Shown: positions 1,256 through 14,101 of the stretch, piece by piece | How positions within the stretch are numbered: position 1 is the first letter of the stretch | Layout: each line of letters begins with the position of its first letter | Source of the DNA: Candidatus Limnocylindria bacterium | GTDB lineage: Bacteria; Chloroflexota; Limnocylindria; P2-11E | Assembly (NCBI GenBank): GCA_036518215.1 | Contig: DATDNP010000083.1 | Coordinates: 1-51,861 of the forward strand | DNA: 51,861 nucleotides | Reading direction: 5' to 3' | Program-made: the position numbers and the translations under genes | Notes under the pieces: generated by a model | Told to the model about the DNA's origin: nothing | Databases searched by the model: none | The model's input: only the letters and a program-made list of their open reading frames with translations

Positions 1256-1754
1256 CGCGCGCTTCTGCATCCAGTGCGGTGCGAAGCTCGTGCGCCGCAC
1301 GGTCGAGCACCGCGTGCGGCCGGTGTGTCCCGAGTGCGGGTGGATCGCGTTCGGCAACGCGAAGCCAGCGGTCGGTGTGCTCATCGAGAAGGGCGCCCGG
1401 CTGCTGCTGGTCCGTCGCGAGCGCGCGCCGTTCAAGGGGTATTGGGACATCCCCGGCGGCTTCCTCGAGCAGGACGAGCACCCGCGCACCGGCGCGGTGC
1501 GCGAGGCGCGCGAGGAGACGGGGCTGCGCATCGCGATCGACGAGCTCCTCGGCGTCTATCACGACAAGAACGGCGACACCTACACGCTGAACCTGTATTA
1601 CCGAGGACACGTGATCGGTGGGCGCGAGAAGGCGGGCGATGACGCCGACGCGCTCAAGTGGTTCACCAAGCGCGAGCTGCCGAAGCGCATCGCGTTCCCG
1701 GGGCATGCGAAGGACGTGCTGCGCGACTGGCTCAAGGGGCAGGTGGCCGGGTGA
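1251..1754 (+). CDS. NUDIX hydrolase with N-terminal zinc ribbon (start uncertain: ATT 1251 vs GTG 1290)
   Basis: In-frame RFCIQCGAKL...VCPECG double CxxC and Nudix box GGFLEQDEHPRTGAVREAREETG. Confidence 0.85.
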   Translation: MSARFCIQCGAKLVRRTVEHRVRPVCPECGWIAFGNAKPAVGVLIEKGARLLLVRRERAPFKGYWDIPGGFLEQDEHPRTGAVREAREETGLRIAIDELLGVYHDKNGDTYTLNLYYRGHVIGGREKAGDDADALKWFTKRELPKRIAFPGHAKDVLRDWLKGQVAG

Positions 1755-2515
1755 CCGCGCTGCTCGCGCCGCAGGTCGACCTCTCGCATGTTCCGGCGGC
1801 GCCGGGCGCATACCTGATGCTCGACGGGCGTGGTCGCATCCTCTACGTCGGCCGCGCCGGCGATCTTCGCGAGCGCGTCCGCAGCTACTGGCACGCGAGC
1901 CTCGACCGTCCGGGACTGCGCGGGATGGTGCGTCGTGTCCGACGCGTCGCGACCGTCACGACCGCGTCGGAGCACGAGGCCGCGTTCCTCGAACGCGCGC
2001 TCCTCGAGCGGCACGATCCGCCGTTCAACCGCACGCTCGGGTTCGAGAGCATCGTGGCGATCCGACTCGCGCCGTCGTCCGTGACCGCGGTGCACGAGAT
2101 CGTCGCGGTGGAGGGCGTCCGCTACTTCGGGCCGTACCTCGGCTGGTCGCCGACGGCCGGCGCCGCGAGCGCCCTCGCGCGCGCGTTCCCCATCCACCTG
2201 TGCCGGCCCGCGAACGCGATGACGACCGTCGAGCGCGACATGGCGCGCCGTCGCGGCGTGAGCGCGGCCGACGGCCCGGCGCTCGCGCGCGCCATCACGG
2301 CCGTGCTCGAGCGCGACGCGTCCGCGATCGGAGATGTCGTCGCGCGCACCGAAGCGGTGCGCGATCGTGCATCGGAGCTCGCGCTCTACGAACGCGCCGC
2401 GGAGGTGCAGGCGGAGATCGCCGGCCTTCGCTGGGTCACGCAGCCGCAGTCCATCGCGCGATTCGACGCGAGCGGCGCGTGGCGGATCGAGGAGTCGCTG
2501 CTCCGATCGGCTTAG
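1751..2515 (+). CDS. GIY-YIG nuclease, UvrC/Cho N-terminal-like, with UVR-like C-terminal helix
   Basis: GTGA overlap with the NUDIX stop. PGAYLMLD..GRILYVGRAGDLRERVRSYW and SEHEAAFLERALLERHDPPFNR. No RNase H-like or HhH C-terminal half. Confidence 0.82.
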   Translation: MTALLAPQVDLSHVPAAPGAYLMLDGRGRILYVGRAGDLRERVRSYWHASLDRPGLRGMVRRVRRVATVTTASEHEAAFLERALLERHDPPFNRTLGFESIVAIRLAPSSVTAVHEIVAVEGVRYFGPYLGWSPTAGAASALARAFPIHLCRPANAMTTVERDMARRRGVSAADGPALARAITAVLERDASAIGDVVARTEAVRDRASELALYERAAEVQAEIAGLRWVTQPQSIARFDASGAWRIEESLLRSA

Positions 2516-3210
2516 GCGAGCTCGAGGTAGCGGAACGCCTCCGCGTGCGGGATGTTCCACGCGGCACCGATGCTCTTCGACCACGCGCGCATGCGCTCCG
2601 GGAATTCGGTGCGGTCGCCGAGCTGTGAGACGTGCGACTGCAGCGCGGCGATCTTCTTGTCCAGCGTCGTCGTGATGTCGAACCAGATATTCGGCTCGCG
2701 CGATCCGAAGAGGAGCACGCGCGAGACGCGGTGGTGCTTCAGCTTGCCGCCGCGCAGCTGCTCCGGGAAGAAGAGGTGGTCGCGCGCCGCGATGACGCCG
2801 TCGAGTCCGCTCCAGCCCGCGACGCGGTGGTCGGGATGGATCTGGTAATGGCCCCACGGGTCGTTCGTGAAGACGACGTCGGGCCTGTGCTCGCGGATCA
2901 CGCGACACACCTCGCCGCGCAGCTTCATCGTCCGCTCGAGCTCGCCGTCCTGGTACCCCAGGAACACGAAGCCCTGTACGCCGATCGCCTCGCCCGCCGC
3001 GCGCTGCTCACGCTGACGGATCTCCGCCATCTGCTTCGGCGACATCTTCGGGTCGTGCGTCCCCTTCTGCCCGCTCGTGATGACGCAGTACGTGACGTGG
3101 GTGCCACGCTCGATCCACGCGGCGAGCGTGCCCGAGCATCCGAAGTCGACATCGTCGGGGTGCGCGAAGATCGCCATCGCCCGCTTCGGGACGGGGAACG
3201 CTTCGGCCAC
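2512..3210 (-). CDS. PIG-L/LmbE family deacetylase (MshB/BshB-like)
   Basis: AHPDDVDFGCSG, RQREQRAAG, GYQDGEL and HPDHRV motifs. GGAGG lies 7 nt before GTG 3210. Confidence 0.9.
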   Translation of the reverse strand: MAEAFPVPKRAMAIFAHPDDVDFGCSGTLAAWIERGTHVTYCVITSGQKGTHDPKMSPKQMAEIRQREQRAAGEAIGVQGFVFLGYQDGELERTMKLRGEVCRVIREHRPDVVFTNDPWGHYQIHPDHRVAGWSGLDGVIAARDHLFFPEQLRGGKLKHHRVSRVLLFGSREPNIWFDITTTLDKKIAALQSHVSQLGDRTEFPERMRAWSKSIGAAWNIPHAEAFRYLELA

Positions 3211-3212
3211 GC

Positions 3213-4472
3213 TCAGACCTCCACCTTCGTGTTCGCGAGGATCTCGGCGTACAGTGCTTCGATGCGATCGCCGACCTTCTTCCACGTGTAGTGCTCCGCG
3301 CGATCGCGCGCGCCGTGCGCGAGGTGCATGCGCAGCCGCGGGTCCGTGAGCACCTGCGCGATCGCCTCCGCGAGCGCCTGGTAATCGCCCGCCGGGACAA
3401 GGAGACCTGATTCGCCGTCCTCGATGAGCTTTTGGAGGCCGCCGACGCGCGTGCCGACGACCGGCGTGCCGCACGCCATCGCCTCGAGCGCGACGAGACC
3501 GAACGATTCCGTCAGGGAGGGAACGGCGCACACGTCCGCGGCCGCGTAGTACATCGCGAGCGCGTCCTGATCCCGCGAGCCCACGAACGAGACGTTCGCC
3601 TCCATGCGGTGCTGATGCACGAGCCGCCGCAGCTCCTGGATCTTCTCCGTCTCGGGCGCATCGTCGCCCGGATCGAGCGCGCCGCCGACGACGACGAGAC
3701 AGACGTCGGACCGGAGCTCGGGATGCCTGAAGAACAGGAGCCCGAGCGCGCGCAGCAGCACGTCGATGCCCTTGATCTGCTCGATCCGCCCGACGAAGAG
3801 GATGAGGCGCTCGCACTGATCGCGACCGAGCTTCTCGCGCGCGTCGACCTGCCGGATCGGCCGGAAGACGTTCGGGTCGACGCCGCACGGGATGACGTGG
3901 AGCTTCGCGCGATCGGCGTCGTACAGGTCCAGCAGCTCGCCGACCTCGATCTCGCTCGCGGCGACGATCGCCGCGGAGTCGCGCACGGCGCGCCGCTCGA
4001 TGGCGATGCGCACGTCGCTCTCGCCGTCGAGGTCCTCGTCCATGACCTCTCGCTTCACGAGGCCGAGCGTGTGGAACATCTGGATGCGCGGCACGCGCCA
4101 CCGCGGCGCGAGCGTGCGCGCGACCTCGGCGGACAGCCAGTAATGGGAGTGGATGAGGTCGTACGAGCGGCCTTCGGCCGCGACGTGCTCCTGGAGCTTC
4201 GTCGTGAACTCGTCGAGGTGGTCGTACACGTCCATCTTCGGCCAGTACCCCATCGGTCCCGACGGGATGTGGACGACGCGCGCGTTCGGACCGAGCGACT
4301 GGATGCGTGGATCGTCCTTCTCGCGCCACCGGGTGAAGACGTCGACCTCGACGCCGCGGCGGCCCAGCTCGCGCGCAAGCTCGCGCACGTACACGTTCAT
4401 GCCGCCCGAGTCGCGCCCGCCGAGCTTCGCGAGCGGGCACGCGTGGACCGACAGCATCGCGATCCGCCTCAC
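3213..4472 (-). CDS. GT4 glycosyltransferase, MshA-like (D-inositol-3-phosphate glycosyltransferase-like)
   Basis: RRIAMLSVHACPLAKLGGRDSGGMNVYV, EVDVFTR, HSHYWLS, FVGRIEQIKG and ESFGLVALEAMACG. Confidence 0.9.
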   Translation of the reverse strand: MRRIAMLSVHACPLAKLGGRDSGGMNVYVRELARELGRRGVEVDVFTRWREKDDPRIQSLGPNARVVHIPSGPMGYWPKMDVYDHLDEFTTKLQEHVAAEGRSYDLIHSHYWLSAEVARTLAPRWRVPRIQMFHTLGLVKREVMDEDLDGESDVRIAIERRAVRDSAAIVAASEIEVGELLDLYDADRAKLHVIPCGVDPNVFRPIRQVDAREKLGRDQCERLILFVGRIEQIKGIDVLLRALGLLFFRHPELRSDVCLVVVGGALDPGDDAPETEKIQELRRLVHQHRMEANVSFVGSRDQDALAMYYAAADVCAVPSLTESFGLVALEAMACGTPVVGTRVGGLQKLIEDGESGLLVPAGDYQALAEAIAQVLTDPRLRMHLAHGARDRAEHYTWKKVGDRIEALYAEILANTKVEV

Positions 4473-5452
4473 TCCCGCACGGCCTCCAGCCGCCAGAGCC
4501 AGCGGTCCGTCGCGCCGAGGTCGTACTTGTATGGCTCGTCGCCGCGAAGCAGGTCGTACACCTTGAAGCCCTGCGCGATCGCATCGCGGATCGCGTACGC
4601 GTGCGTCGCGATGCCGAGCGAGAGCGATGAGAAGGCGGGGTCGTACGCGGCGTTGTACAGGGCGAGCGTGTCTCCGTACGCGAACGCGAAGAGCACCGCG
4701 GCATCGACGTCGTGCGCGCGGATGACGCCGAGCCGCAGCGTGCCGTTGGCCGCGAGCGCGTCGGCGATATCGCGGAAGAACGACTCGGCCTCCGTGGTCA
4801 TGAACGCGGCCTTCTCGCCCTTCGAGAGACGGTGCAGCGCGAAGAAGCGGTCGAGCACGCTTGCGCGCTCCGACTCGGGCGCCCAGCGGAACCCCGTGCC
4901 GGGAGCGTCGTCGAATCGCCGCAGCTTGCGGCGCAGCTCATGCCGCTCCTTCTTGCCGAGTCCCTGCACGTACGTCTCGAAGTCACCGGGGAGCGTCATC
5001 CGCGGGCTCGTGATGAGGCGCTCGCGCGTCACCCGATAGCCACACGCGGCGAGGGTCTCGTCGATCGCGGTGAGCGTCGGCGTGTCTTCCGGAACGTACT
5101 CGAGGAGCACGCGCGGCGTGCGCTCGGCGGCGATCCACGTCGCGACCGCGACCGAAGCGCGCCGCGCGTCGTCGGGAGCGGCCGCGATGTCCTGTTCGTC
5201 GGTGAGCTCTCCGCCGGCGAAGCCGATGGTCCCGTCGGCGGAGCGCGCGAGCGCGGCCACGGCGTACGGAGGATCGCCCGCGGCGAGCGTGATCGGCTCC
5301 CGCGCGTCATGCGCTCGGGCCACCGCAAGCCAGTCGGGAGTGAGGAAGATGGAGGCTGGCGCGCGCCGCGCGGCGATGCCGGACCAGGCGGACCGGATCT
5401 CGCTCGGGGCGCGCGCGGTACAGGCTGCGTCCGGGCTGGTGGAGAGGGTCAC
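4469..5452 (-). CDS. GNAT family protein, Acetyltransf_6 / CelD-BcsL / FemAB-like double GNAT fold
   Basis: SIFLTPDWL, basic helix KKERHELRRKLRRF, YNAAYDP and YDLLRGDEPYKYDLG. GGAGG precedes GTG 5452. Confidence 0.82.
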   Translation of the reverse strand: MTLSTSPDAACTARAPSEIRSAWSGIAARRAPASIFLTPDWLAVARAHDAREPITLAAGDPPYAVAALARSADGTIGFAGGELTDEQDIAAAPDDARRASVAVATWIAAERTPRVLLEYVPEDTPTLTAIDETLAACGYRVTRERLITSPRMTLPGDFETYVQGLGKKERHELRRKLRRFDDAPGTGFRWAPESERASVLDRFFALHRLSKGEKAAFMTTEAESFFRDIADALAANGTLRLGVIRAHDVDAAVLFAFAYGDTLALYNAAYDPAFSSLSLGIATHAYAIRDAIAQGFKVYDLLRGDEPYKYDLGATDRWLWRLEAVRE

Positions 5453-5513
5453 CCGACCTCCGAGTCTAGGAGTTCCCTGACAGAACACACCGTTGCGTAC
5501 ATATCATTCCCGC

Positions 5514-6667
5514 GTGCCCGACCGCGCGGCGCCGCGGGTCGTCATCGCCCCCCAATCGTTCAAAGGAAGCGCGGATGCGGTCGCCGTCGCCGCGGCGATC
5601 GCGCGCGGGCTGCGTCGTGTCTGGCCGCGCGCCGAATGTCTCGAGGTGCCCCTCGCCGACGGCGGTGAGGGCACGGTGCATGCCCTCGTCCGCGCGACGG
5701 GCGGCGAGCTGCGTCGAACGCGCGTGCACGACCCGCTCGGGCGCGAGATCGATGCGGAGTGGGGGATCCTCGGCGATCGCACGACCGCGGTCGTTGAGAT
5801 GGCGGCCGCGAGCGGACTCACGCTCCTTCGCGAGGACGAGCGGGATCCACGAATCACGTCGACGCGCGGCACTGGTGAGCTCATCCTTGCCGCCGCGATG
5901 ACGGGCGCTCACCGCATCGTCATCGGCATCGGAGGGAGCGCGACGAACGACGGCGGCGCGGGGATGGCGCGCGCGTTCGGCTATCGATTCTTCGACGCGG
6001 ACGGTGTCGAGCTGCCCGAGGGCGGCGCCGCGCTCGCACGACTCGCGCGCATCGATGGGCAGACCGACCCGCGTCTCGTCCGTCCGAGCATCGATGTCGC
6101 GTGTGACGTGCGCAATCCGCTCCTCGGCTCCGAGGGCGCGACCGCGGTGTTCGGACCGCAGAAGGGAGCGACGCGCGACATCGTGCGCGAGCTCGACGGT
6201 GCGCTCGGGCGCTACGCCGATGTCGTCGAGCGTTTCGTCGGTCGGCCGGTCCGCGATGTGCCCGGCGCGGGTGCTGCGGGCGGTCTCGGCGCGGGACTCG
6301 TCGCGTTCCTCGATGCGCGACTCGTATCGGGCGCGAAGCTCGTCCTCGATGCGGTCCGCTTCGATCGCCGTCTCGACGGCGCGACGCTCGTCGTCACCGG
6401 CGAGGGGCGGATCGACGGTCAGAGCGTGTACGGGAAGCTGACGCAGGCCGTGACCGAGGCCGCGAAGCGGCGTGGCGTGCGCGTCGCCGCCGTCGCGGGG
6501 ATGCTCGGTCCCGGCTACGAAGCGATGCGCGACGCGGGCATCGACATGATCCAGACATGCGCGACGACGGACGCCGAGCGCGTGGCTGCGATGCGCGATC
6601 CGCTTCCGCGGATCGAAGCGGCGGCGGAGCGGCTCGCGATGCAGATCGACGCGGGAGCGGATACCGT

Positions 6668-6671
<4 letters not shown>
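5514..6671 (+). CDS. glxK: Glycerate kinase (GarK/GlxK family)
   Basis: VIAPQSFKGS, PLADGGEGT, STRGTGELI, GGSATNDGG, VFGPQKGA and TGEGRIDGQS. TATCAT -10 box lies 6 nt before GTG. Confidence 0.95.
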
Positions 6672-7656
<985 letters not shown>

Positions 7657-7660
<4 letters not shown>

Positions 7661-9849: not shown

Positions 9850-10767
9850 TTGAGCGCATTCACAGAGCTCATCGGTCGCGGCGAGTTCGTCGTCACGGCC
9901 GAGCTCAATCCCCCGAAGAGCGCCGCCGCGAGCGTCGTGCGTCGCCGCGCGAGCGTGCTCAAGGGGTACGCCGATGCGGTGAACATCACCGACAGCAATC
10001 GCGCGGTCGTCGCGATGGCCGCGATCCCCGCCGCCGTCCTCGTGCGTGAGGCCGGGGTCGAGCCGATCGTGCAGATGACCGGCCGCGATCGCAACCGCAT
10101 CGCGCTCCAGGCGGATCTCCTCGGCGCGAACGCGCTCGGACTCGAGCACTTCGTGTTCATGAGCGGCGACGACCCGAAGCAGGGGAACCATCCCGACGCG
10201 GTGAACGTGAAGGACCTCGACGGGATCGGCCTCGTGAAGATGGCCGTCCGGATGCGCGATGAGGGGAAGTTCCTGTCCGGGGACGAGCTGAAGCAGCCGC
10301 CACGCTACGTCGTGGGAGCGACCGCGTCACCGTTCACGAAGCCGATGGAGGCCGACGTCGCGAAGACGGTCGAGAAGATCGCGGCCGGCGCCGACTTCCT
10401 GCAGACCCAGCCGGTGTTCGACCTCGCGACCTTCGGCCGCTGGCTGGCCGAGGTCCGGCGCGCGGCTCCGCGGAACGTCGCGATCATCGCGGGCGTCTTC
10501 GTGCTGCGCTCGGCCGAGCAGGCCGAGCGGCTCGCGAAGATCCCGGGACTCGCGCTCGGCCCCGACGTGCTCGAGCGGATGAAGCGAGCGGACGACGCGG
10601 AGGCGGAAGGCGTCTCGCTCGCGGTCGAGATGGTGCGAAGCCTGCGCAAGCTGCCGGGGGTCGGCGGCGTGCATCTGTATGCGATCGAATGGCCGGAGGG
10701 CGTCGCGCGCGTCGTCGAAGGCGCCGGCCTCTACCCGCGAGCGAAAGTGAAGGAGGCCGTCCATTGA
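9850..10767 (+). CDS. metF: Methylenetetrahydrofolate reductase
   Basis: FVVTAELNPPK, AVNITDS, TGRDRNRIALQADLLGA, SGDDP, KIAAGADFLQTQPVFD and GVHLY. Confidence 0.92.
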   Translation: MSAFTELIGRGEFVVTAELNPPKSAAASVVRRRASVLKGYADAVNITDSNRAVVAMAAIPAAVLVREAGVEPIVQMTGRDRNRIALQADLLGANALGLEHFVFMSGDDPKQGNHPDAVNVKDLDGIGLVKMAVRMRDEGKFLSGDELKQPPRYVVGATASPFTKPMEADVAKTVEKIAAGADFLQTQPVFDLATFGRWLAEVRRAAPRNVAIIAGVFVLRSAEQAERLAKIPGLALGPDVLERMKRADDAEAEGVSLAVEMVRSLRKLPGVGGVHLYAIEWPEGVARVVEGAGLYPRAKVKEAVH

Positions 10768-11732
10768 AGACGACCGTCATCGGCGCCTATCCGAAGATCT
10801 CCGACGAGCGGCAGGACCTGCGCCGCGCGCTCCACGCGCACGACCGCGGCGAGCTCGACGACGCCGCGCTCGACACCGTGTACGACGAGACGATCGCGTG
10901 GGCCGTCGGCGAGATCCATTCCGCCGGGATCGACGTCCCGAACGACGGTCACATCCGCTGGGACGATCTGCTCGCGCCGTTCGCGAGCGGCTGGAAGAAC
11001 TGCGAGCGGGGACCGCTCGAGCGCTTCTACGACAACAACACCTACTTCCGGCAGCCCGTCGTGAAGGGACCGATCGAAAGCGACGGAAAGACGCTCGTGC
11101 GCGACTTCACGTACGCGAACAAGCTCGCGAGCGGGATGAAGGCGGGGATCTGCGGGCCGCTCACGTTCGCGACGCTCACCGCGGAGGATCGCCACTACAA
11201 GACCCTCGAGGACCGGACGCTCGCCGCGGCGGACGCGCTCGCCGCGGAGCTGCGCGGCCTCAAGGCCGCCGGCGCGCCGCTCGTCGACGTGGAGGAGCCC
11301 GCGCTCGCGGCGCACCCGGAGCTCATCGATCTCGAGCGCGCAGCGTTCGATCGGCTCGCGAAGGCGGGCGTGCCGCTCGCGCTCCATGCGTACTTCTTCC
11401 CGATCGACACGATCATCGCGAAGCTCGCGTCGTTCCCGATCGCGCAGCTCGGCGTCGATGCGCGGAGCCGCGAGACGTCCGCGAAGGCGATCGACGCGCT
11501 CGGCGCGTTCACGGGCACCGTCGTCCTCGGCATCGTCGACGCGCGGAACACCGCGGTCGAGACGCCGCGCGAGCTCGCCGATCTCATCGAGCGCGCCATC
11601 GGCCGCGTCTCGTACGACCGGCTCTGGTTCTCGCCGACGACGGGTCTCGAATACCTGCCGCACGACATCGCGGTCCGCAAGCTGTCCGCGCTCGTCTCGG
11701 CCGCGCGCGCAACGAAGGGGGTGCCGGCGTGA
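10764..11732 (+). CDS. Split cobalamin-independent methionine synthase, N-terminal (non-catalytic barrel) part
   Basis: AGGAGG plus TTG in a TTGA overlap with metF. TTVIGAYPK, DGHIRWDD, RFYDNNTYFRQP, GPLTFA and VLGIVDARN. Zn ligands absent (HAYF, PTTGL). Confidence 0.82.
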   Translation: MKTTVIGAYPKISDERQDLRRALHAHDRGELDDAALDTVYDETIAWAVGEIHSAGIDVPNDGHIRWDDLLAPFASGWKNCERGPLERFYDNNTYFRQPVVKGPIESDGKTLVRDFTYANKLASGMKAGICGPLTFATLTAEDRHYKTLEDRTLAAADALAAELRGLKAAGAPLVDVEEPALAAHPELIDLERAAFDRLAKAGVPLALHAYFFPIDTIIAKLASFPIAQLGVDARSRETSAKAIDALGAFTGTVVLGIVDARNTAVETPRELADLIERAIGRVSYDRLWFSPTTGLEYLPHDIAVRKLSALVSAARATKGVPA

Positions 11733-12712
11733 GCGAGATCCTATTGACGACGACGGTCGGCTCGTTCGGGAAGCCCGACTATCTGCAGAAGGCGCGCAAC
11801 CAGAACGCGCGCGGCAAGCTCTCCGACAGCGACCTCGAGCAGCTCGAGCGCAAGGCGACCGAGGAGTGGATCCGCCGTCAGGAGGCGATCGACCTCGACA
11901 TCCTCGTCGACGGAGAGATGTACCGCGGCGACATGGTCGCGTATTTCGCGGAGCGTCTCGAGGGGTTCACGATCGGCGGCCTCGTGCGCTCGTACGGGAA
12001 CCGCTACTACCACAAGCCCGTCATCGCATCGAAGGTCCGCCGGCCGAAGGCGATGACCGTCGACTGGTTCCGCTACACGCAAGGCCTCACCGATCGTCCG
12101 GTGAAGGGCATGCTCACGGGGCCGTACACGATGCTCGACTGGTCGTACAACGAGGCCTACAAGACGCGGCGCGACGCCGCGCTCGCGCTCGCCGAGGTCA
12201 TCCGGCAGGAGGCCGAGGACCTCGAACGCGCGGGCGCGAAATACATCCAGATCGACGAGCCCGCGATCCATGCGCGACCCGAGGAGATCGACATCGCGAT
12301 CGAGGCGATGGGCGTCGTCACGCAGAACCTGAAGGCGAAGACGGTGTCGCACATCTGCTACGGCGACTTCGCCGCGATCTACCCGAAGGTCCTCGAGCTC
12401 CCCGTCGACCAGCTCGATCTCGCCATGTCGAACTACGAATACCGCTGGCTCGATCTGTTCAAGCAGCATCCCTTCACGAAAGAGCTCGCGATCGGGATCG
12501 TCGACGTGCATTCGCACCGCCTCGAGACGGTCGACGAGGCCGCGGAGGGGATCCGCAAGGGGCTCGCGTACGTGAAGCCGGACAAGCTCCTGCCGCATCC
12601 CGACTGCGGGCTCAAGACACGCACGGTCGAGGAGTCGCTCGACAAGTGCCGCGTCGTCGTCGAGGCCGCGAAGAAAGTGCGCAGCGAGGTGTCCAAAGCG
12701 GCGGCCGTGTAG
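11729..12712 (+). CDS. metE: Split cobalamin-independent methionine synthase, catalytic Zn barrel
   Basis: GTGA overlap. TTTVGSFGKP, VDGEMYRGDMV, VRSYGNRYY, KGMLTGPYT, IQIDEPA, Zn ligands HICYG and HPDCGLKTR. Confidence 0.9.
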   Translation: MSEILLTTTVGSFGKPDYLQKARNQNARGKLSDSDLEQLERKATEEWIRRQEAIDLDILVDGEMYRGDMVAYFAERLEGFTIGGLVRSYGNRYYHKPVIASKVRRPKAMTVDWFRYTQGLTDRPVKGMLTGPYTMLDWSYNEAYKTRRDAALALAEVIRQEAEDLERAGAKYIQIDEPAIHARPEEIDIAIEAMGVVTQNLKAKTVSHICYGDFAAIYPKVLELPVDQLDLAMSNYEYRWLDLFKQHPFTKELAIGIVDVHSHRLETVDEAAEGIRKGLAYVKPDKLLPHPDCGLKTRTVEESLDKCRVVVEAAKKVRSEVSKAAAV

Positions 12713-12769
12713 GCCCTACAGTGGACCGCGGACCAGGGCGACGCGGTCACACCATCGTGGGGAGCGCAC

Positions 12770-14101
12770 ATGGCCATGCTCGTCGAGGAGACGACCGATC
12801 TCCTCCAGCACCTCATTCGGAACGCGTGCGTGAACGACGGCACGCCGCAGTCGGGCCACGAGCTCCGCAGCGTCGACACGCTCGAGAGCTACCTGCGTGT
12901 CCCCGGCGTGGAGATGCGGCGGTACGAGCCGGTGCCGGGACGGGGGAGCCTCGTCGTTCGCATCGAGGGCAGCGACAAGACCGCGCCGAGCCTGCATCTC
13001 ATGGGACACACCGACGTCGTCCCGGTGACGCCGTCGGGCTGGCGGCACGACCCCTTCGGCGGCGAGCTCATCGACGGCGAGGTGTGGGGCCGCGGCGCGA
13101 TCGACATGCTCGACGTCACGGCGTCGATGGCCGTCGCGCTGAAGCAGCTGCTCACGACCGGTTTCCGGCCGAAGGGGACGCTCATCTACTCGGCCGTCGC
13201 CGACGAGGAGGCCCTCGGGACGCATGGCGCGCAGTGGCTCACCGAGAACGCATGGGACGACGTGAAGAGCGACTACCTCGTGACGGAGTTCGGTGGCGCG
13301 CGCATCCCGATCGGACAGGGCGCGAAGCTGCCGATCATGACGGCGGAGAAGGGCTCGCAGTGGACCCGGCTCCGCGTGAAGGGCACGCCCGGACACGGCT
13401 CGATGCCGTACCGCAGCGATAACGCCCTCGTGAAGGCGGCCGAGCTCATCACGCGCATCGCGAAGTACAAGGCGCCGCTTCACCTGCGGGGCGTGTGGAA
13501 GGAGTTCGTCGAGGGGATCGACCTGCCGACGGTCCAGCGCATGGCGCTCACGACCGCCGCGACGTTCGACGCCGCGCTCGATCGGCTTCCCGCGGGCGCC
13601 GACAAGATGATGTACGCCGCCACGCGCACGACGTTCTCGCCGAATATCGCGCACTCGGGCATCAAGCTGAACGTGATCCCGGACAGCGCCGAGATCGACG
13701 TCGACATCCGTCTCCTGCCGGGTGACGAGGGCGACGGCGTGCGCGCGATGCTGCGTGACGCGGCGGGCGACCTGTGGAAGGACGTCGAGATCGTCGCCGA
13801 GGGCGACAATCCCGCGACCGAGTCGCCGCGCGACACGCCGCTGTGGCGTGCGCTCACGAAGGTGACGCAGCAGCTCGTCCCCGACTCGACGACCGTGCCG
13901 TTCCTCGTCGTCGGCGCGACCGACGCGCGGTTCTTCCGTCGCAAGGGCGTCATCGCGTACGGCTATGGCCTCATGAGCCAGCAGATCCCGTTCGGCGAGT
14001 TCTCGAAGCTCTTCCACGGGAACAACGAGCGCGTCGACCTCGACACGCTGAAGCTCATGACGCCGCTCTGGGAAGGCGCGATCCGGGAGATGGTCGGCTA
14101 G
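12770..14101 (+). CDS. M20/M25/M40 family metallo-hydrolase
   Basis: LMGHTDVVP, WGRGAIDM, ADEEALG, KGTPGHGS, GATDARF and FHGNNER. Confidence 0.92.
   Translation: MAMLVEETTDLLQHLIRNACVNDGTPQSGHELRSVDTLESYLRVPGVEMRRYEPVPGRGSLVVRIEGSDKTAPSLHLMGHTDVVPVTPSGWRHDPFGGELIDGEVWGRGAIDMLDVTASMAVALKQLLTTGFRPKGTLIYSAVADEEALGTHGAQWLTENAWDDVKSDYLVTEFGGARIPIGQGAKLPIMTAEKGSQWTRLRVKGTPGHGSMPYRSDNALVKAAELITRIAKYKAPLHLRGVWKEFVEGIDLPTVQRMALTTAATFDAALDRLPAGADKMMYAATRTTFSPNIAHSGIKLNVIPDSAEIDVDIRLLPGDEGDGVRAMLRDAAGDLWKDVEIVAEGDNPATESPRDTPLWRALTKVTQQLVPDSTTVPFLVVGATDARFFRRKGVIAYGYGLMSQQIPFGEFSKLFHGNNERVDLDTLKLMTPLWEGAIREMVG

Follow-up and report, generated by a model that had tools for sequence, protein, structure and literature searches.

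A translationally coupled three-gene operon in Candidatus Limnocylindria

We analyzed a 51,861-nt stretch of Candidatus Limnocylindria bacterium, an uncultured member of Chloroflexota (DATDNP010000083.1; hereafter the 51.9 kb window), in which positions 2512-5452 of the minus strand hold a translationally coupled three-gene operon (GNAT, then GT4, then PIG-L). The operon and its immediate neighbourhood comprise the following features:

4469..5452, minus strand: FemX-fold double-GNAT (PF13480, Acetyltransf_6) of 327 aa, operon gene 1; GTG start with GGAGG before it
3213..4472, minus strand: MshA-like retaining GT4 glycosyltransferase of 419 aa; GTG start fused with the GNAT stop as GTGA
2512..3210, minus strand: PIG-L/LmbE-family zinc deacetylase of 232 aa; GTG 2 nt past the GT4 TGA, with GGAGG before it
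4916..4960, minus strand: codons L165-R179 of the basic helix (LGKKERHELRRKLRR) at the junction of both GNAT lobes; candidate tRNA acceptor-stem binding helix
4526..4531, minus strand: codons Y308-K309 within FDLLRGDEPYKYDLG; candidate catalytic aromatic-Lys pair
5453..5492, no strand: very short divergent intergenic region separating the operon from the glycerate kinase gene
5493..6671, plus strand: glycerate kinase gene, with the GlpX gene next after it

An earlier sequence-only reading had described three packed, co-oriented genes, and the GTGA overlap, the 2-nt gap and the Shine-Dalgarno sequences bear this out. Pfam assigns PF13480 to the GNAT (E 4.5e-30), Glycos_transf_1 (1e-41) and Glyco_transf_4 (1e-30) to the GT4, and PF02585 to the PIG-L protein (1.8e-31), and the motifs MLSVHACPLAKLGGRDSGGMNVY, HSHYWLS and KKERHELRRKLRR all occur in the operon proteins as first written. 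No sigma-70 consensus was found upstream of the operon, where such a search is uninformative at 70% GC. The divergent glycerate kinase and GlpX genes are kept beside the operon in every Limnocylindria locus reaching far enough upstream.

Family relationships of the glycosyltransferase and the deacetylase

The best HMM for the GT4 is TIGR03449 (MshA) with 363.2 bits, under the cutoff of 462.5; with the same model, the controls CgMshA and Tll1590 (a UDP-glucose enzyme) score 719.6 and 288.3 bits. The SPS and BshA models give 151 and 134 bits. Against PDB sequences, CgMshA is the best match (266 bits), followed by Tll1590 (251) and BshA (about 99). The GT4 is equidistant from CgMshA and Tll1590 (36% identity), and MshA is the top-scoring HMM for Tll1590 too. 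We therefore do not regard the GT4 as a certified MshA, and the failed cutoff together with this equidistance makes its donor and acceptor insecure. The motifs of the "MshA signature set" that had been claimed for it are present, and the MshA-type catalytic and acceptor-phosphate residues are kept as well (S21, G22, G23, M24, N25, K78, Y110, H133, T134, R154, K236, E316 and E324 in CgMshA numbering), but the set is partly common to Tll1590. In TeSPS, the acceptor phosphate is bound by R105 and R178 (PMC7264703), which align with the GT4 Lys and Arg corresponding to CgMshA K78 and R154. The Gln of the TeSPS GGQN motif binds fructose (PMC7264703), whereas the GT4 has MshA-type GGMN.

The PIG-L sequence contains the metal/catalytic motifs AHPDD and HPDH. 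Its scores against curated models are all sub-cutoff, with BshB1 best (101 bits), followed by BshB2 (93), Mca (58) and MshB (42), while PDB matches comprise diacetylchitobiose deacetylase (132 bits), LnmX (107), BshB (42-54) and MshB (29). Judged by sequence, it is nearer BshB and archaeal diacetylchitobiose deacetylase than MshB, and the former label "MshB-like" had to be dropped.

A double-GNAT with the fold of aminoacyl-tRNA-dependent transferases

By sequence, the GNAT had no match in the PDB. For its AF2 model (pLDDT 93.5, pTM 0.88), Foldseek ranks 1-26 (TM 0.55-0.69) comprise Sba18/Sbb17, FemX, FemA and MprF/aaPGS, all aminoacyl-tRNA-dependent transferases, plus 2hqy, a protein of unknown function. 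Rank 1 is Sba18 with streptothrisamine bound, deposited as an aminoacyl-tRNA-dependent peptide synthase. The first acyl-CoA GNAT appears at rank 27 (TM 0.39), acyl-CoA tandem GNATs give TM 0.37-0.53, and no MshD structure is among the best 50; similarity to the MshD model TIGR03448 was not detectable. The ~327-aa Acetyltransf_6 double-GNAT with a basic helix and a fold common to FemABX enzymes, as first described, is confirmed by the Pfam match, by the helix in the model and its invariance across phyla, and by FemX and FemA among the top ranks. The accompanying view of MshD as a small GNAT was wrong: TIGR03448 has 294 positions, and MshD-like proteins are ~300 aa long with two Acetyltransf_1 domains.

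The basic helix spans residues 167-182 in the model. In a 10-sequence, multi-phylum alignment, L165-E172, R175, K176 and R178 are invariant, and L[SG]KK[DE]RHELRRK is near-universal across 60 representatives (30-47% identity). Neither the helix nor the YK motif varies among sequences from Limnocylindria, Actinomycetota and "Deltaproteobacteria" or those of Dehalococcoidia type. The defining mark of Fem, L/F-transferase and aaPGS enzymes is a helix with positive charge (PMC6103681), and Y308-K309 is analogous by motif to F304-K305 of FemXWv and F328-K329 of DhpH-C (PMC12945691), which makes it a candidate catalytic pair. A conserved SPG is found where the Q/RxxGxG/A CoA loop usually stands, and PF04339 (FemAB_like) also matches some GNAT relatives. 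We propose that the GNAT is an aminoacyl-tRNA-dependent N-aminoacyl transferase.

Conservation and gene content of the cluster

The trio is found in the same order at about 44 Limnocylindria loci and at dozens of more distant loci. It is syntenic in every Limnocylindria locus of sufficient length, so the conservation that the earlier reading had put up for checking is real; recurrence of three genes in the same order is not chance, and the cluster is widespread in Chloroflexota. GNAT is followed by GT4 in 36/36 distant genome loci and 58/62 metagenome loci, and the pair also occurs in Actinomycetota (including Acidimicrobiia MAGs) and "Deltaproteobacteria" MAGs. Among the 27 metagenome loci long enough to score genes beyond the pair, 16 have PIG-L downstream (directly adjacent in 6 of these, as in the window), 12 have an MshD-like tandem GNAT (TIGR03448 as full-length top match, 79-127 bits), and 8 carry the pair alone. 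The MshD-like cluster gene was confirmed on Pfam-annotated Mb-scale contigs; with it, the extended cluster comprises counterparts of MshA, MshB and MshD plus a Fem-type enzyme, and no MshC. The cluster lies among conserved housekeeping genes with no flippase, polymerase or further glycosyltransferases, a setting more in keeping with a core metabolite than with a surface polymer.

MshC had been reported absent from the window, and this held: there is no KMSKS-type motif in any frame of the 51.9 kb, and no aaRS-like, BshC, MshD or inositol-phosphate-synthase family among the about 40 window genes scanned. Neither the window nor the surrounding 10 kb of any Pfam-annotated relative contains an MshC- or BshC-like gene, the 40 loci scanned show no tRNA gene or aaRS paralogue alongside the cluster, and tblastn gave no Ino1 in the window. 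Close to the operon, Limnocylindria and Dehalococcoidia-type loci have no inositol-phosphate synthase; an inositol-1-phosphate synthase gene directly adjoins the GNAT-GT4 pair in 11 "Deltaproteobacteria"/Deferrimicrobiaceae loci.

Proposed synthesis of an N-aminoacylated glucosaminyl conjugate

The ligase of mycothiol synthesis is MshC, an ATP-dependent CysRS paralogue, and BshC is thought to serve bacillithiol synthesis. Building upon the observed gene order, coupling, family and fold assignments, and residue and cluster conservation, we consider it an even call that the operon directs the synthesis of an N-aminoacylated glucosaminyl conjugate along mycothiol/bacillithiol lines, using a non-homologous ligase, a scheme in which we infer all substrates. 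MshA, MshB and MshD homologues or analogues are present, and the Fem-type enzyme appears to take the place of MshC. The GT4 would first move GlcNAc from UDP-GlcNAc onto a small phosphorylated hydroxyl acceptor, most likely 1L-myo-inositol-1-phosphate, and PIG-L would then strip the N-acetyl group, freeing the 2-amino group of the sugar. In the third step, the basic helix of the GNAT would hold the aminoacyl-tRNA acceptor stem, and the enzyme would put the aminoacyl group on the amine via Tyr308-Lys309, as FemX does with Phe304-Lys305, thereby standing in for MshC or BshC. In related clusters only, those of many other Chloroflexota, the new alpha-amine would be acylated by an MshD-like tandem GNAT; since the Limnocylindria operon has no MshD-like gene nearby, the amine of its product may stay free, as in bacillithiol. 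The most attractive amino acid candidate is cysteine, a speculative and rather doubtful choice that, if true, would make the product a low-molecular-weight thiol. Several findings speak against the scheme: the GT4 misses the MshA cutoff, inositol-phosphate synthase is missing near the operon in Limnocylindria and Dehalococcoidia-type loci, tRNA genes and aaRS paralogues are missing from the 40 loci scanned, 8 of the 27 long metagenome loci have the GNAT-GT4 pair alone, and the Chloroflexia GNAT homologue has an envelope-glycan-like setting; a canonical mshC or bshC may also lie elsewhere in the genome, msh genes being normally scattered. The sequence-only reading had placed a Fem-type aminoacyl transferase at the ligase step outside Actinobacteria; fold, basic helix, YK motif and cluster conservation speak for this part, as do the MshD-like gene and the adjoining inositol-1-phosphate synthase in relatives, while the GT4 falls short of MshA and the deacetylase is BshB/Dac-like rather than MshB-like.

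Alternative explanations

We regard as unlikely a conventional mycothiol-type pathway whose canonical ATP-dependent ligase gene (for MshC or BshC) lies elsewhere, and in which the PF13480 GNAT would be a late acyl-CoA-dependent N-acyltransferase (an MshD analogue or tailoring enzyme). Such a pathway would accord with the usual dispersal of msh genes, with MshD itself being a ~300-aa tandem GNAT (TIGR03448 length 294), and with the MSH pathway reported in one Acidimicrobiia species (PMC4255298), as Acidimicrobiia MAGs carry the GNAT-GT4 pair. BspF, a Brucella effector and distant PF13480-like protein annotated as a crotonyl transferase, matches the GNAT weakly (NCBIfam E 0.0079), suggesting that an acyl-CoA donor is possible in the wider superfamily. 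The GNAT itself, however, has neither detectable similarity to TIGR03448 nor a conserved CoA-binding loop, MshD structures fall outside its best 50 Foldseek matches, and it shows the fold, basic helix and YK motif of tRNA-dependent enzymes. Moreover, in many clusters the PF13480 gene is accompanied by a distinct MshD-like gene that already fills the MshD role.

Envelope glycoconjugate tailoring seems to us quite unlikely. Here, GT4 and PIG-L would build a GlcN glycolipid or polysaccharide (e.g., a GlcN-phosphatidylinositol-like or GlcN-lipid anchor), and a CelD/BcsL-type GNAT would attach an acyl or aminoacyl residue to the freed amine at the membrane. GPI anchor synthesis also begins with a GT4 step and then a PIG-L step, the PIG-L protein is closest to chitobiose deacetylase, and the JGI family name is [quoted passage not shown]. 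A DUF502 membrane protein is present in many clusters, and in Chloroflexia a GNAT homologue lies beside a different GT4, membrane glycosyltransferases and a PIG-L protein in an apparent envelope-glycan cluster. The Limnocylindria operon, in contrast, has housekeeping surroundings and no membrane protein, flippase, polymerase or extra glycosyltransferase, its GT4 resembles soluble enzymes of the MshA/SPS type, its ligands being those for the free phosphate of a small acceptor, and its high class-wide sequence conservation is unlike that of typical surface-glycan islands.

That the GT4 is functionally linked to its conserved divergent neighbours, glycerate kinase and the fructose-6-P-forming GlpX, with the PIG-L and GNAT genes as unrelated passengers, is very improbable: Tll1590, assayed as sucrose-phosphate synthase, is 36-39% identical to Limnocylindria GT4s and has phosphate ligands in common with them, but all three operon genes are translationally coupled, GNAT, GT4 and PIG-L also recur together in lineages without these neighbours, GGMN is present rather than fructose-binding GGQN, and the SPS HMM gives 151 bits vs 363 for MshA.

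Comparison with known systems

As in mycothiol synthesis of Actinomycetes (MshA, MshA2, MshB, MshC, MshD), the proposed pathway pairs an MshA-clade GT4, whose catalytic and acceptor-phosphate residues are unchanged, with a PIG-L/LmbE deacetylase expected to expose the amine of GlcN, joined by an MshD-like tandem GNAT in related Chloroflexota clusters and by an inositol-phosphate synthase adjoining the GNAT-GT4 pair in one lineage. It differs in a GT4 that scores 363 bits where the MshA model asks for 462.5 and true MshA reaches 720, a PIG-L that is not MshB-like (42 bits), and a FemX-fold PF13480 protein translationally coupled upstream of the GT4, with no CysRS-like MshC in the cluster; its genes lie together, unlike the normally dispersed msh genes, and the host belongs to Chloroflexota. 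Bacillithiol synthesis (BshA, BshB, BshC) likewise combines a GT4 and a PIG-L protein with a third enzyme adding an amino acid; BshB1 is the best curated model for the window PIG-L, and bacillithiol leaves the cysteine amine free, matching the Limnocylindria operon with its lack of an N-acetyltransferase. The operon GT4, however, is far nearer MshA than BshA (363 vs 134 bits), the cluster has no BshC homologue, and the predicted acceptor is phosphorylated, unlike malate.

A GT4 and PIG-L/LmbE pair is also known from the paromamine module of 2-deoxystreptamine aminoglycosides, where the MshA-derived GT4 BtrM/NeoM joins GlcNAc to a cyclitol and BtrD/NeoL frees the amine; this module lies in antibiotic clusters with many tailoring genes and, unlike the operon, is not known to include a Fem-type enzyme. 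With FemX/FemABX and MprF, the GNAT has in common the double-GNAT fold, an interlobe substrate cleft, a positively charged helix and, close to the C-terminus, an aromatic-Lys motif. It belongs to PF13480 and not to FemAB (PF02388) or DUF2156, has neither coiled-coil arm nor membrane domain, and is found with a GT4 and a deacetylase rather than with cell-wall or lipid genes.

The best structural match to the GNAT is Orf11/Sba18/Sbb17 of the streptothricin-type BD-12 pathways (E 1e-11, TM 0.59-0.66, 19-20% identity), although sequence similarity is not detectable with HMMER, the acceptor scaffold is different, and these enzymes belong to Streptomyces secondary metabolism instead of a conserved core-genome cluster. 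Orf11 glycylates streptothrisamine using Gly-tRNA (PMC12945691), and this aminoacylation of an amino-sugar amine is the chemistry proposed for the GNAT.

A compact operon of a GNAT, a glycosyltransferase and a deacetylase

The sequence-only reading had described three co-oriented, tightly packed genes at 2512-5452 of the window. This arrangement is borne out by a GTGA overlap at one junction and a 2-base gap at the other, and all motifs quoted at that stage were found in the translated genes.

Genes of the operon (window coordinates)
5452..4469, minus strand: GNAT of 327 aa, PF13480 Acetyltransf_6 (Pfam E 4.5e-30); GTG start with GGAGG ahead
4472..3213, minus strand: GT4 glycosyltransferase of 419 aa (Glycos_transf_1 + Glyco_transf_4); its GTG overlaps the GNAT stop as GTGA
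3210..2512, minus strand: PIG-L deacetylase (PF02585) of 232 aa (Pfam E 1.8e-31, 109.8 bits); GTG 2 bases past the GT4 TGA, with GGAGG ahead

The window DNA has a G+C content of 70%, at which a scan for sigma-70 promoters and terminators was uninformative. By its named homologues, the DNA belongs to Candidatus Limnocylindria (Chloroflexota). Exact look-ups of the GT4 and GNAT sequences found no record.

The GNAT is predicted to share the fold of aminoacyl-tRNA-dependent transferases

PF13480 was the sole Pfam family found for the GNAT, with no match to Pfam FemAB (PF02388); some of its relatives also match PF04339 FemAB_like. NCBIfam gave only a marginal match, to the Brucella effector BspF. 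The MshD model TIGR03448 had no match at E<=0.01, in agreement with the earlier view that this gene is not of the MshD type. Sequence and profile searches of the PDB with the GNAT likewise gave no match, and structural relatives came from fold comparison alone. An initial AF2 model from a shallow alignment of 25 sequences had a pLDDT of 76 and a poor N-terminus; a second, built on a 60-sequence two-phylum alignment with Actinomycetota homologues added, reached a pLDDT of 93.5 and a pTM of 0.88 and has a double-GNAT fold. When it was compared with the PDB using Foldseek, every match in ranks 1-26 (TM 0.55-0.69) was an aminoacyl-tRNA-dependent transferase, apart from a single protein of unknown function. 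The transferases were Sba18, Sbb17, FemA, FemX from Weissella and from Staphylococcus, and the MprF domain with aminoacyl-phosphatidylglycerol synthase function. The first acyl-CoA GNAT followed at rank 27 (TM 0.39). The top structural matches were the streptothricin-type (BD-12) pathway enzymes Sba18/Sbb17 (TM 0.59-0.66), deposited as aminoacyl-tRNA-dependent peptide synthases with streptothrisamine bound; FemX reached TM 0.66-0.69, and both had an E value of 1e-11. The order of matches was identical with the pLDDT 76 model. The FemABX fold proposed from sequence holds up on modelling.

[quoted passage not shown] Helix 167-182 of the GNAT model, KKERHELRRKLRR, is basic, is located where the two lobes meet and is invariant across phyla. 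The basic helix pointed out earlier is therefore real as a conserved feature, and sequence and model together make it a candidate tRNA acceptor-stem helix, the putative counterpart of the FemX helix. Limnocylindria, Actinomycetota, 'Deltaproteobacteria' and Chloroflexia all share L165-E172, R175, K176 and R178 without variation, and L[SG]KK[DE]RHELRRK is near-universal among 60 GNAT representatives of 30-47% identity. Equally invariant is Y308-K309, which recalls, by motif, F304-K305 of FemXWv (the Weissella FemX) and F328-K329 of DhpH-C (PMC12945691). The usual CoA pyrophosphate loop is not conserved. At 50% identity, the GNAT family comprises 9,417 clusters at E<=0.001, 2,805 at E<=1e-10 and 223 at E<=1e-30.

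The glycosyltransferase and deacetylase resemble early thiol-pathway enzymes

TIGR03449 (MshA) is the top curated model of the window GT4, with 363.2 bits against a cutoff of 462.5; BshA scores 134 bits and the sucrose-phosphate synthase (SPS) domain 151 bits. With the same model, the true MshA reference CgMshA reaches 719.6 bits and the UDP-glucose enzyme Tll1590 reaches 288.3 bits, and the window GT4 is 36% identical to each. Since Tll1590 also has MshA as its top model, a sub-cutoff match does not establish MshA function, and we discarded the score as proof of it. Tll1590 (PDB 6kih) is a cyanobacterial protein whose crystal structure was reported as that of a sucrose-phosphate synthase, and elsewhere the enzyme is called a glucosylsucrose synthase; its best NCBIfam model is MshA (288 bits), whereas the SPS domain model gives only 145 bits. 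Given this example, caution is advised with sub-cutoff 'MshA' annotations outside Actinobacteria.

In the alignment, the window GT4 keeps K78, Y110, T134 and R154 (CgMshA numbering), which the 2008 work of Vetting et al. is said to have assigned as acceptor-phosphate ligands in MshA, together with the GGMN loop. In the SPS-type enzyme TeSPS, the acceptor phosphate is bound by R105 and R178 and fructose by the Gln of GGQN (PMC7264703). These two arginines correspond to K78 and R154 in CgMshA, where the window GT4 has a Lys and an Arg; at the GGQN position it has GGMN, as in MshA. The GT-B/GT4 catalytic residues His133, Lys236, Glu316 and Glu324 (PMC4506291; CgMshA numbering) are conserved in four of four positions. 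Of the earlier call of an MshA-like glycosyltransferase, the catalytic residues, phosphate ligands and GGMN loop therefore stand, but the TIGR03449 cutoff is missed. Judged by its sequence, the protein is an MshA-clade GT4 predicted to act on a small phosphorylated acceptor, with an acceptor loop that appears MshA-like rather than SPS-like; it is not a certified MshA, and we infer both its donor sugar and its acceptor.

The PIG-L protein shows the AHPDD and HPDH (HxDH) metal/catalytic motifs. The sequence-only reading had called it MshB-like; its membership of the PIG-L family and its motifs agree with this, but MshB scores only 41.7 bits (cutoff 224.35), below BshB1 (101.4; cutoff 182.5) and BshB2 (93.0; cutoff 195.25), all of them under their cutoffs. 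The closest solved structures are archaeal diacetylchitobiose deacetylases (132 bits), then LnmX (107), with BshB at 42-54 bits and MshB at 29 bits. All characterised relatives known to us remove the N-acetyl group from a GlcNAc glycoside, and the context suggests this role here too. Taken by curated tests, the proteins of the cluster fall outside MshA, MshB, BshB, MshD and Pfam FemAB.

The gene set is conserved across several lineages

Among GTDB species genomes, we counted ~44 Limnocylindria-type loci, and the order GNAT-GT4-PIG-L is kept in all of them where the contig is long enough. In 36 of 36 more distant genome loci (GNAT identity 27-43%), a GT4 lies directly downstream of the GNAT. 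MshA-model scores of these GT4s are 385-432 bits in MAGs of Acidimicrobiia and other Actinomycetota and 334 bits in a low-GC Chloroflexi MAG; in 'Deltaproteobacteria'/Deferrimicrobiaceae MAGs, MshA is still the top model, at 133 bits. An inositol-1-phosphate synthase gene (Ino1, PF01658) directly adjoins the GNAT-GT4 pair in all 11 of the latter loci and only there, with none in the window or the other loci.

A metagenome scan using a profile of the more distant GNAT family members added 80 loci, from a wider group whose source names are Chloroflexi and Dehalococcoidia MAGs. Of the 62 loci that extend far enough, 58 have a GT4 directly after the GNAT (36-51% identity to the window GT4). Where at least 3.5 kb past the GT4 was available (27 loci), a same-strand PIG-L gene lies downstream in 16 (35-48% identity to the window PIG-L), directly adjacent in 6, as in the window, and with one or two genes intervening in 10; another 8 hold the GNAT-GT4 pair only. 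Conservation of the trio, put forward earlier as a check, is thus found throughout the sufficiently long Limnocylindria loci and in over half of the long metagenome loci.

Three loci with the Limnocylindria-type block carry other labels, namely Candidatus Acidiferrales (L018), Bathyarchaeia archaeon (L036) and Saccharimonadales (L041). All three have glycerate kinase, GNAT (60-76% identity to that of the window) and GT4; PIG-L and PurH are present in L018 and L041, and GlpX in L018. They are probably mis-binned Limnocylindria contigs.

Related clusters carry an MshD-like gene

Two kinds of gene lie between GT4 and PIG-L in metagenome loci. One encodes a membrane protein of the DUF502 family; the other, oppositely oriented, encodes a tandem GNAT of ~300 aa, whose full-length top model is TIGR03448 (MshD) with 79-127 bits against a cutoff of 163.1. 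Three long Pfam-annotated contigs (0.28-1.47 Mb) share the order FolE, PF13480 GNAT, GT4, DUF502 and tandem Acetyltransf_1 GNAT, followed by PIG-L in two of the three. Among the longer Dehalococcoidia-type clusters, about half have the DUF502 gene (PF04367) separating GT4 from the MshD-like gene (e.g., 10314-11072 in metagenome locus L102 and 12272-12979 in the long contig L165), and none was found near the Limnocylindria operon. The MshD-like gene is also absent there, and the Limnocylindria product may thus keep a free alpha-amine, as bacillithiol does.

Several neighbours were considered as pathway members. FolE (GTP cyclohydrolase I) ends within a few bases of the GNAT start or overlaps it in ~50 of 80 metagenome loci and in all three long contigs (e.g., L165 9474-9998, L167 9432-10004). 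It belongs to a long hom-thrC-folE housekeeping synteny and is absent from Limnocylindria, Actinomycetota and 'Deltaproteobacteria' loci, and was rejected as a member; its proximity may reflect that synteny or hint at a pterin-related acceptor, and the pterin-glycoside reading is kept only as a distant possibility. Divergent glycerate kinase and GlpX genes adjoin the trio wherever Limnocylindria loci extend far enough upstream, but were set aside as conserved within Limnocylindria only and absent from other cluster-bearing lineages. On an Acidimicrobiia-type contig of 2.84 Mb, an RsiG gene is followed by an Asparaginase_II gene (PF06089; L083 9049-9990; L084 923-1864), with only 11 bp between the latter and the GNAT-GT4 pair downstream; its product could be an amidase acting in this pathway. 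Neither a tRNA gene nor an aaRS paralogue, which might hint at the amino acid, was found beside the cluster in 40 loci or in the window.

A possible tRNA-dependent route to a low-molecular-weight thiol

Low-molecular-weight thiols set the cell's redox chemistry, detoxification and metal handling; to our knowledge, the thiol of most Chloroflexota, a large phylum, is unknown, and we know of no biochemical resolution of the ligase step of bacillithiol's BshC. Of the four dedicated mycothiol enzymes, three have a counterpart in the extended cluster: MshA in the MshA-like GT4, MshB in the BshB-like deacetylase that would take its role, and MshD in the MshD-like acetyltransferase. The cluster also encodes a protein with the Fem fold of tRNA-dependent enzymes, always in translational linkage with the GT4. 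It resembles the mycothiol and bacillithiol pathways in steps 1 and 2, and Orf11/Sba18 (both streptothricin-type) or FemX in step 3. In the proposed pathway, the GT4 would add a sugar to a small phosphorylated acceptor and the PIG-L enzyme would free an amine, which the Fem-type enzyme would aminoacylate as the ligase step, with aminoacyl-tRNA as donor in place of an ATP-activated amino acid. A Fem-type ligase is the simplest reading, and we put the mechanism as a whole at even chances. That the amino acid is cysteine is a good deal less probable. About as doubtful is the full proposal that the PF13480 enzyme cysteinylates a glucosaminyl-inositol (or related) scaffold from Cys-tRNA(Cys), an MshC/BshC-independent, tRNA-dependent route to a mycothiol/bacillithiol-class thiol; on this proposal, the route would operate in Chloroflexota, among them the abundant Limnocylindria and the Dehalococcoidia-type lineages, as well as in some members of Actinomycetota and 'Deltaproteobacteria'.

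Part of the GNAT family may instead serve envelope glycans, an alternative that is alive: the Chloroflexia homologue is paired with a different, stp2-like GT4 amid membrane glycosyltransferases and a larger PIG-L protein. The cluster itself sits among housekeeping genes without flippases, polymerases or further glycosyltransferases, a setting more in keeping with a soluble core metabolite than with a variable surface glycan. A canonical ligase (mshC or bshC) may also be encoded elsewhere in the genome, as msh genes are normally scattered. Motif and family scans found no CysRS-like MshC or BshC in the window, consistent with the absence of MshC noted from sequence, and none lies within 10 kb in the annotated relatives L081, L083 and L165-L167. 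The mycothiol (MSH) pathway is reported in one Acidimicrobiia species (PMC4255298), and with the GNAT-GT4 pair present in Acidimicrobiia MAGs, co-existence with MshC is possible there.

In our literature searches, we found no earlier account of a mycothiol- or bacillithiol-like cluster that includes a Fem-type or PF13480 enzyme. MshA, MshB and MshD counterparts with a Fem-type enzyme for the ATP-dependent ligase would point to a missing cofactor pathway and, if confirmed, would name that of a major, largely uncultured phylum. The tRNA-dependent route, if true, would be a natural example of non-orthologous replacement at the ligase step, one ligase type for another; if its product is a core cofactor, primary cofactor biosynthesis would join the processes outside the ribosome that consume charged tRNA. 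Should the amino acid be other than cysteine, the family (~2,800 clusters at 50% identity, E<=1e-10) would still define a new class of aminoacylated amino-sugar metabolites, and PF13480 'CelD/BcsL' proteins would gain a testable function.

Other features around the operon

Opposite in strand to the operon, the glycerate kinase gene begins just ~40-60 bp away from the first operon gene and is followed by GlpX (together 5493-7660, plus strand); shared regulation with the operon is possible. On the other side, a 285-aa ORF (1658-2515, plus strand) is convergent with the deacetylase gene, with a 4-nt overlap at the deacetylase stop. Inspection by eye suggests a GIY-YIG-like motif at the N-terminus of the ORF product, for which Pfam gave no match; the ORF is conserved in some of the Limnocylindria loci (L032, L034, L040). 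Further along, a SAM riboswitch (RF00162; 9740-9840, plus strand; 83 bits, E 3e-18) precedes an MTHFR gene (9850-10767) and a pair of half-size MetE-like genes, which are Meth_synt_2 by synteny with the relative L081.
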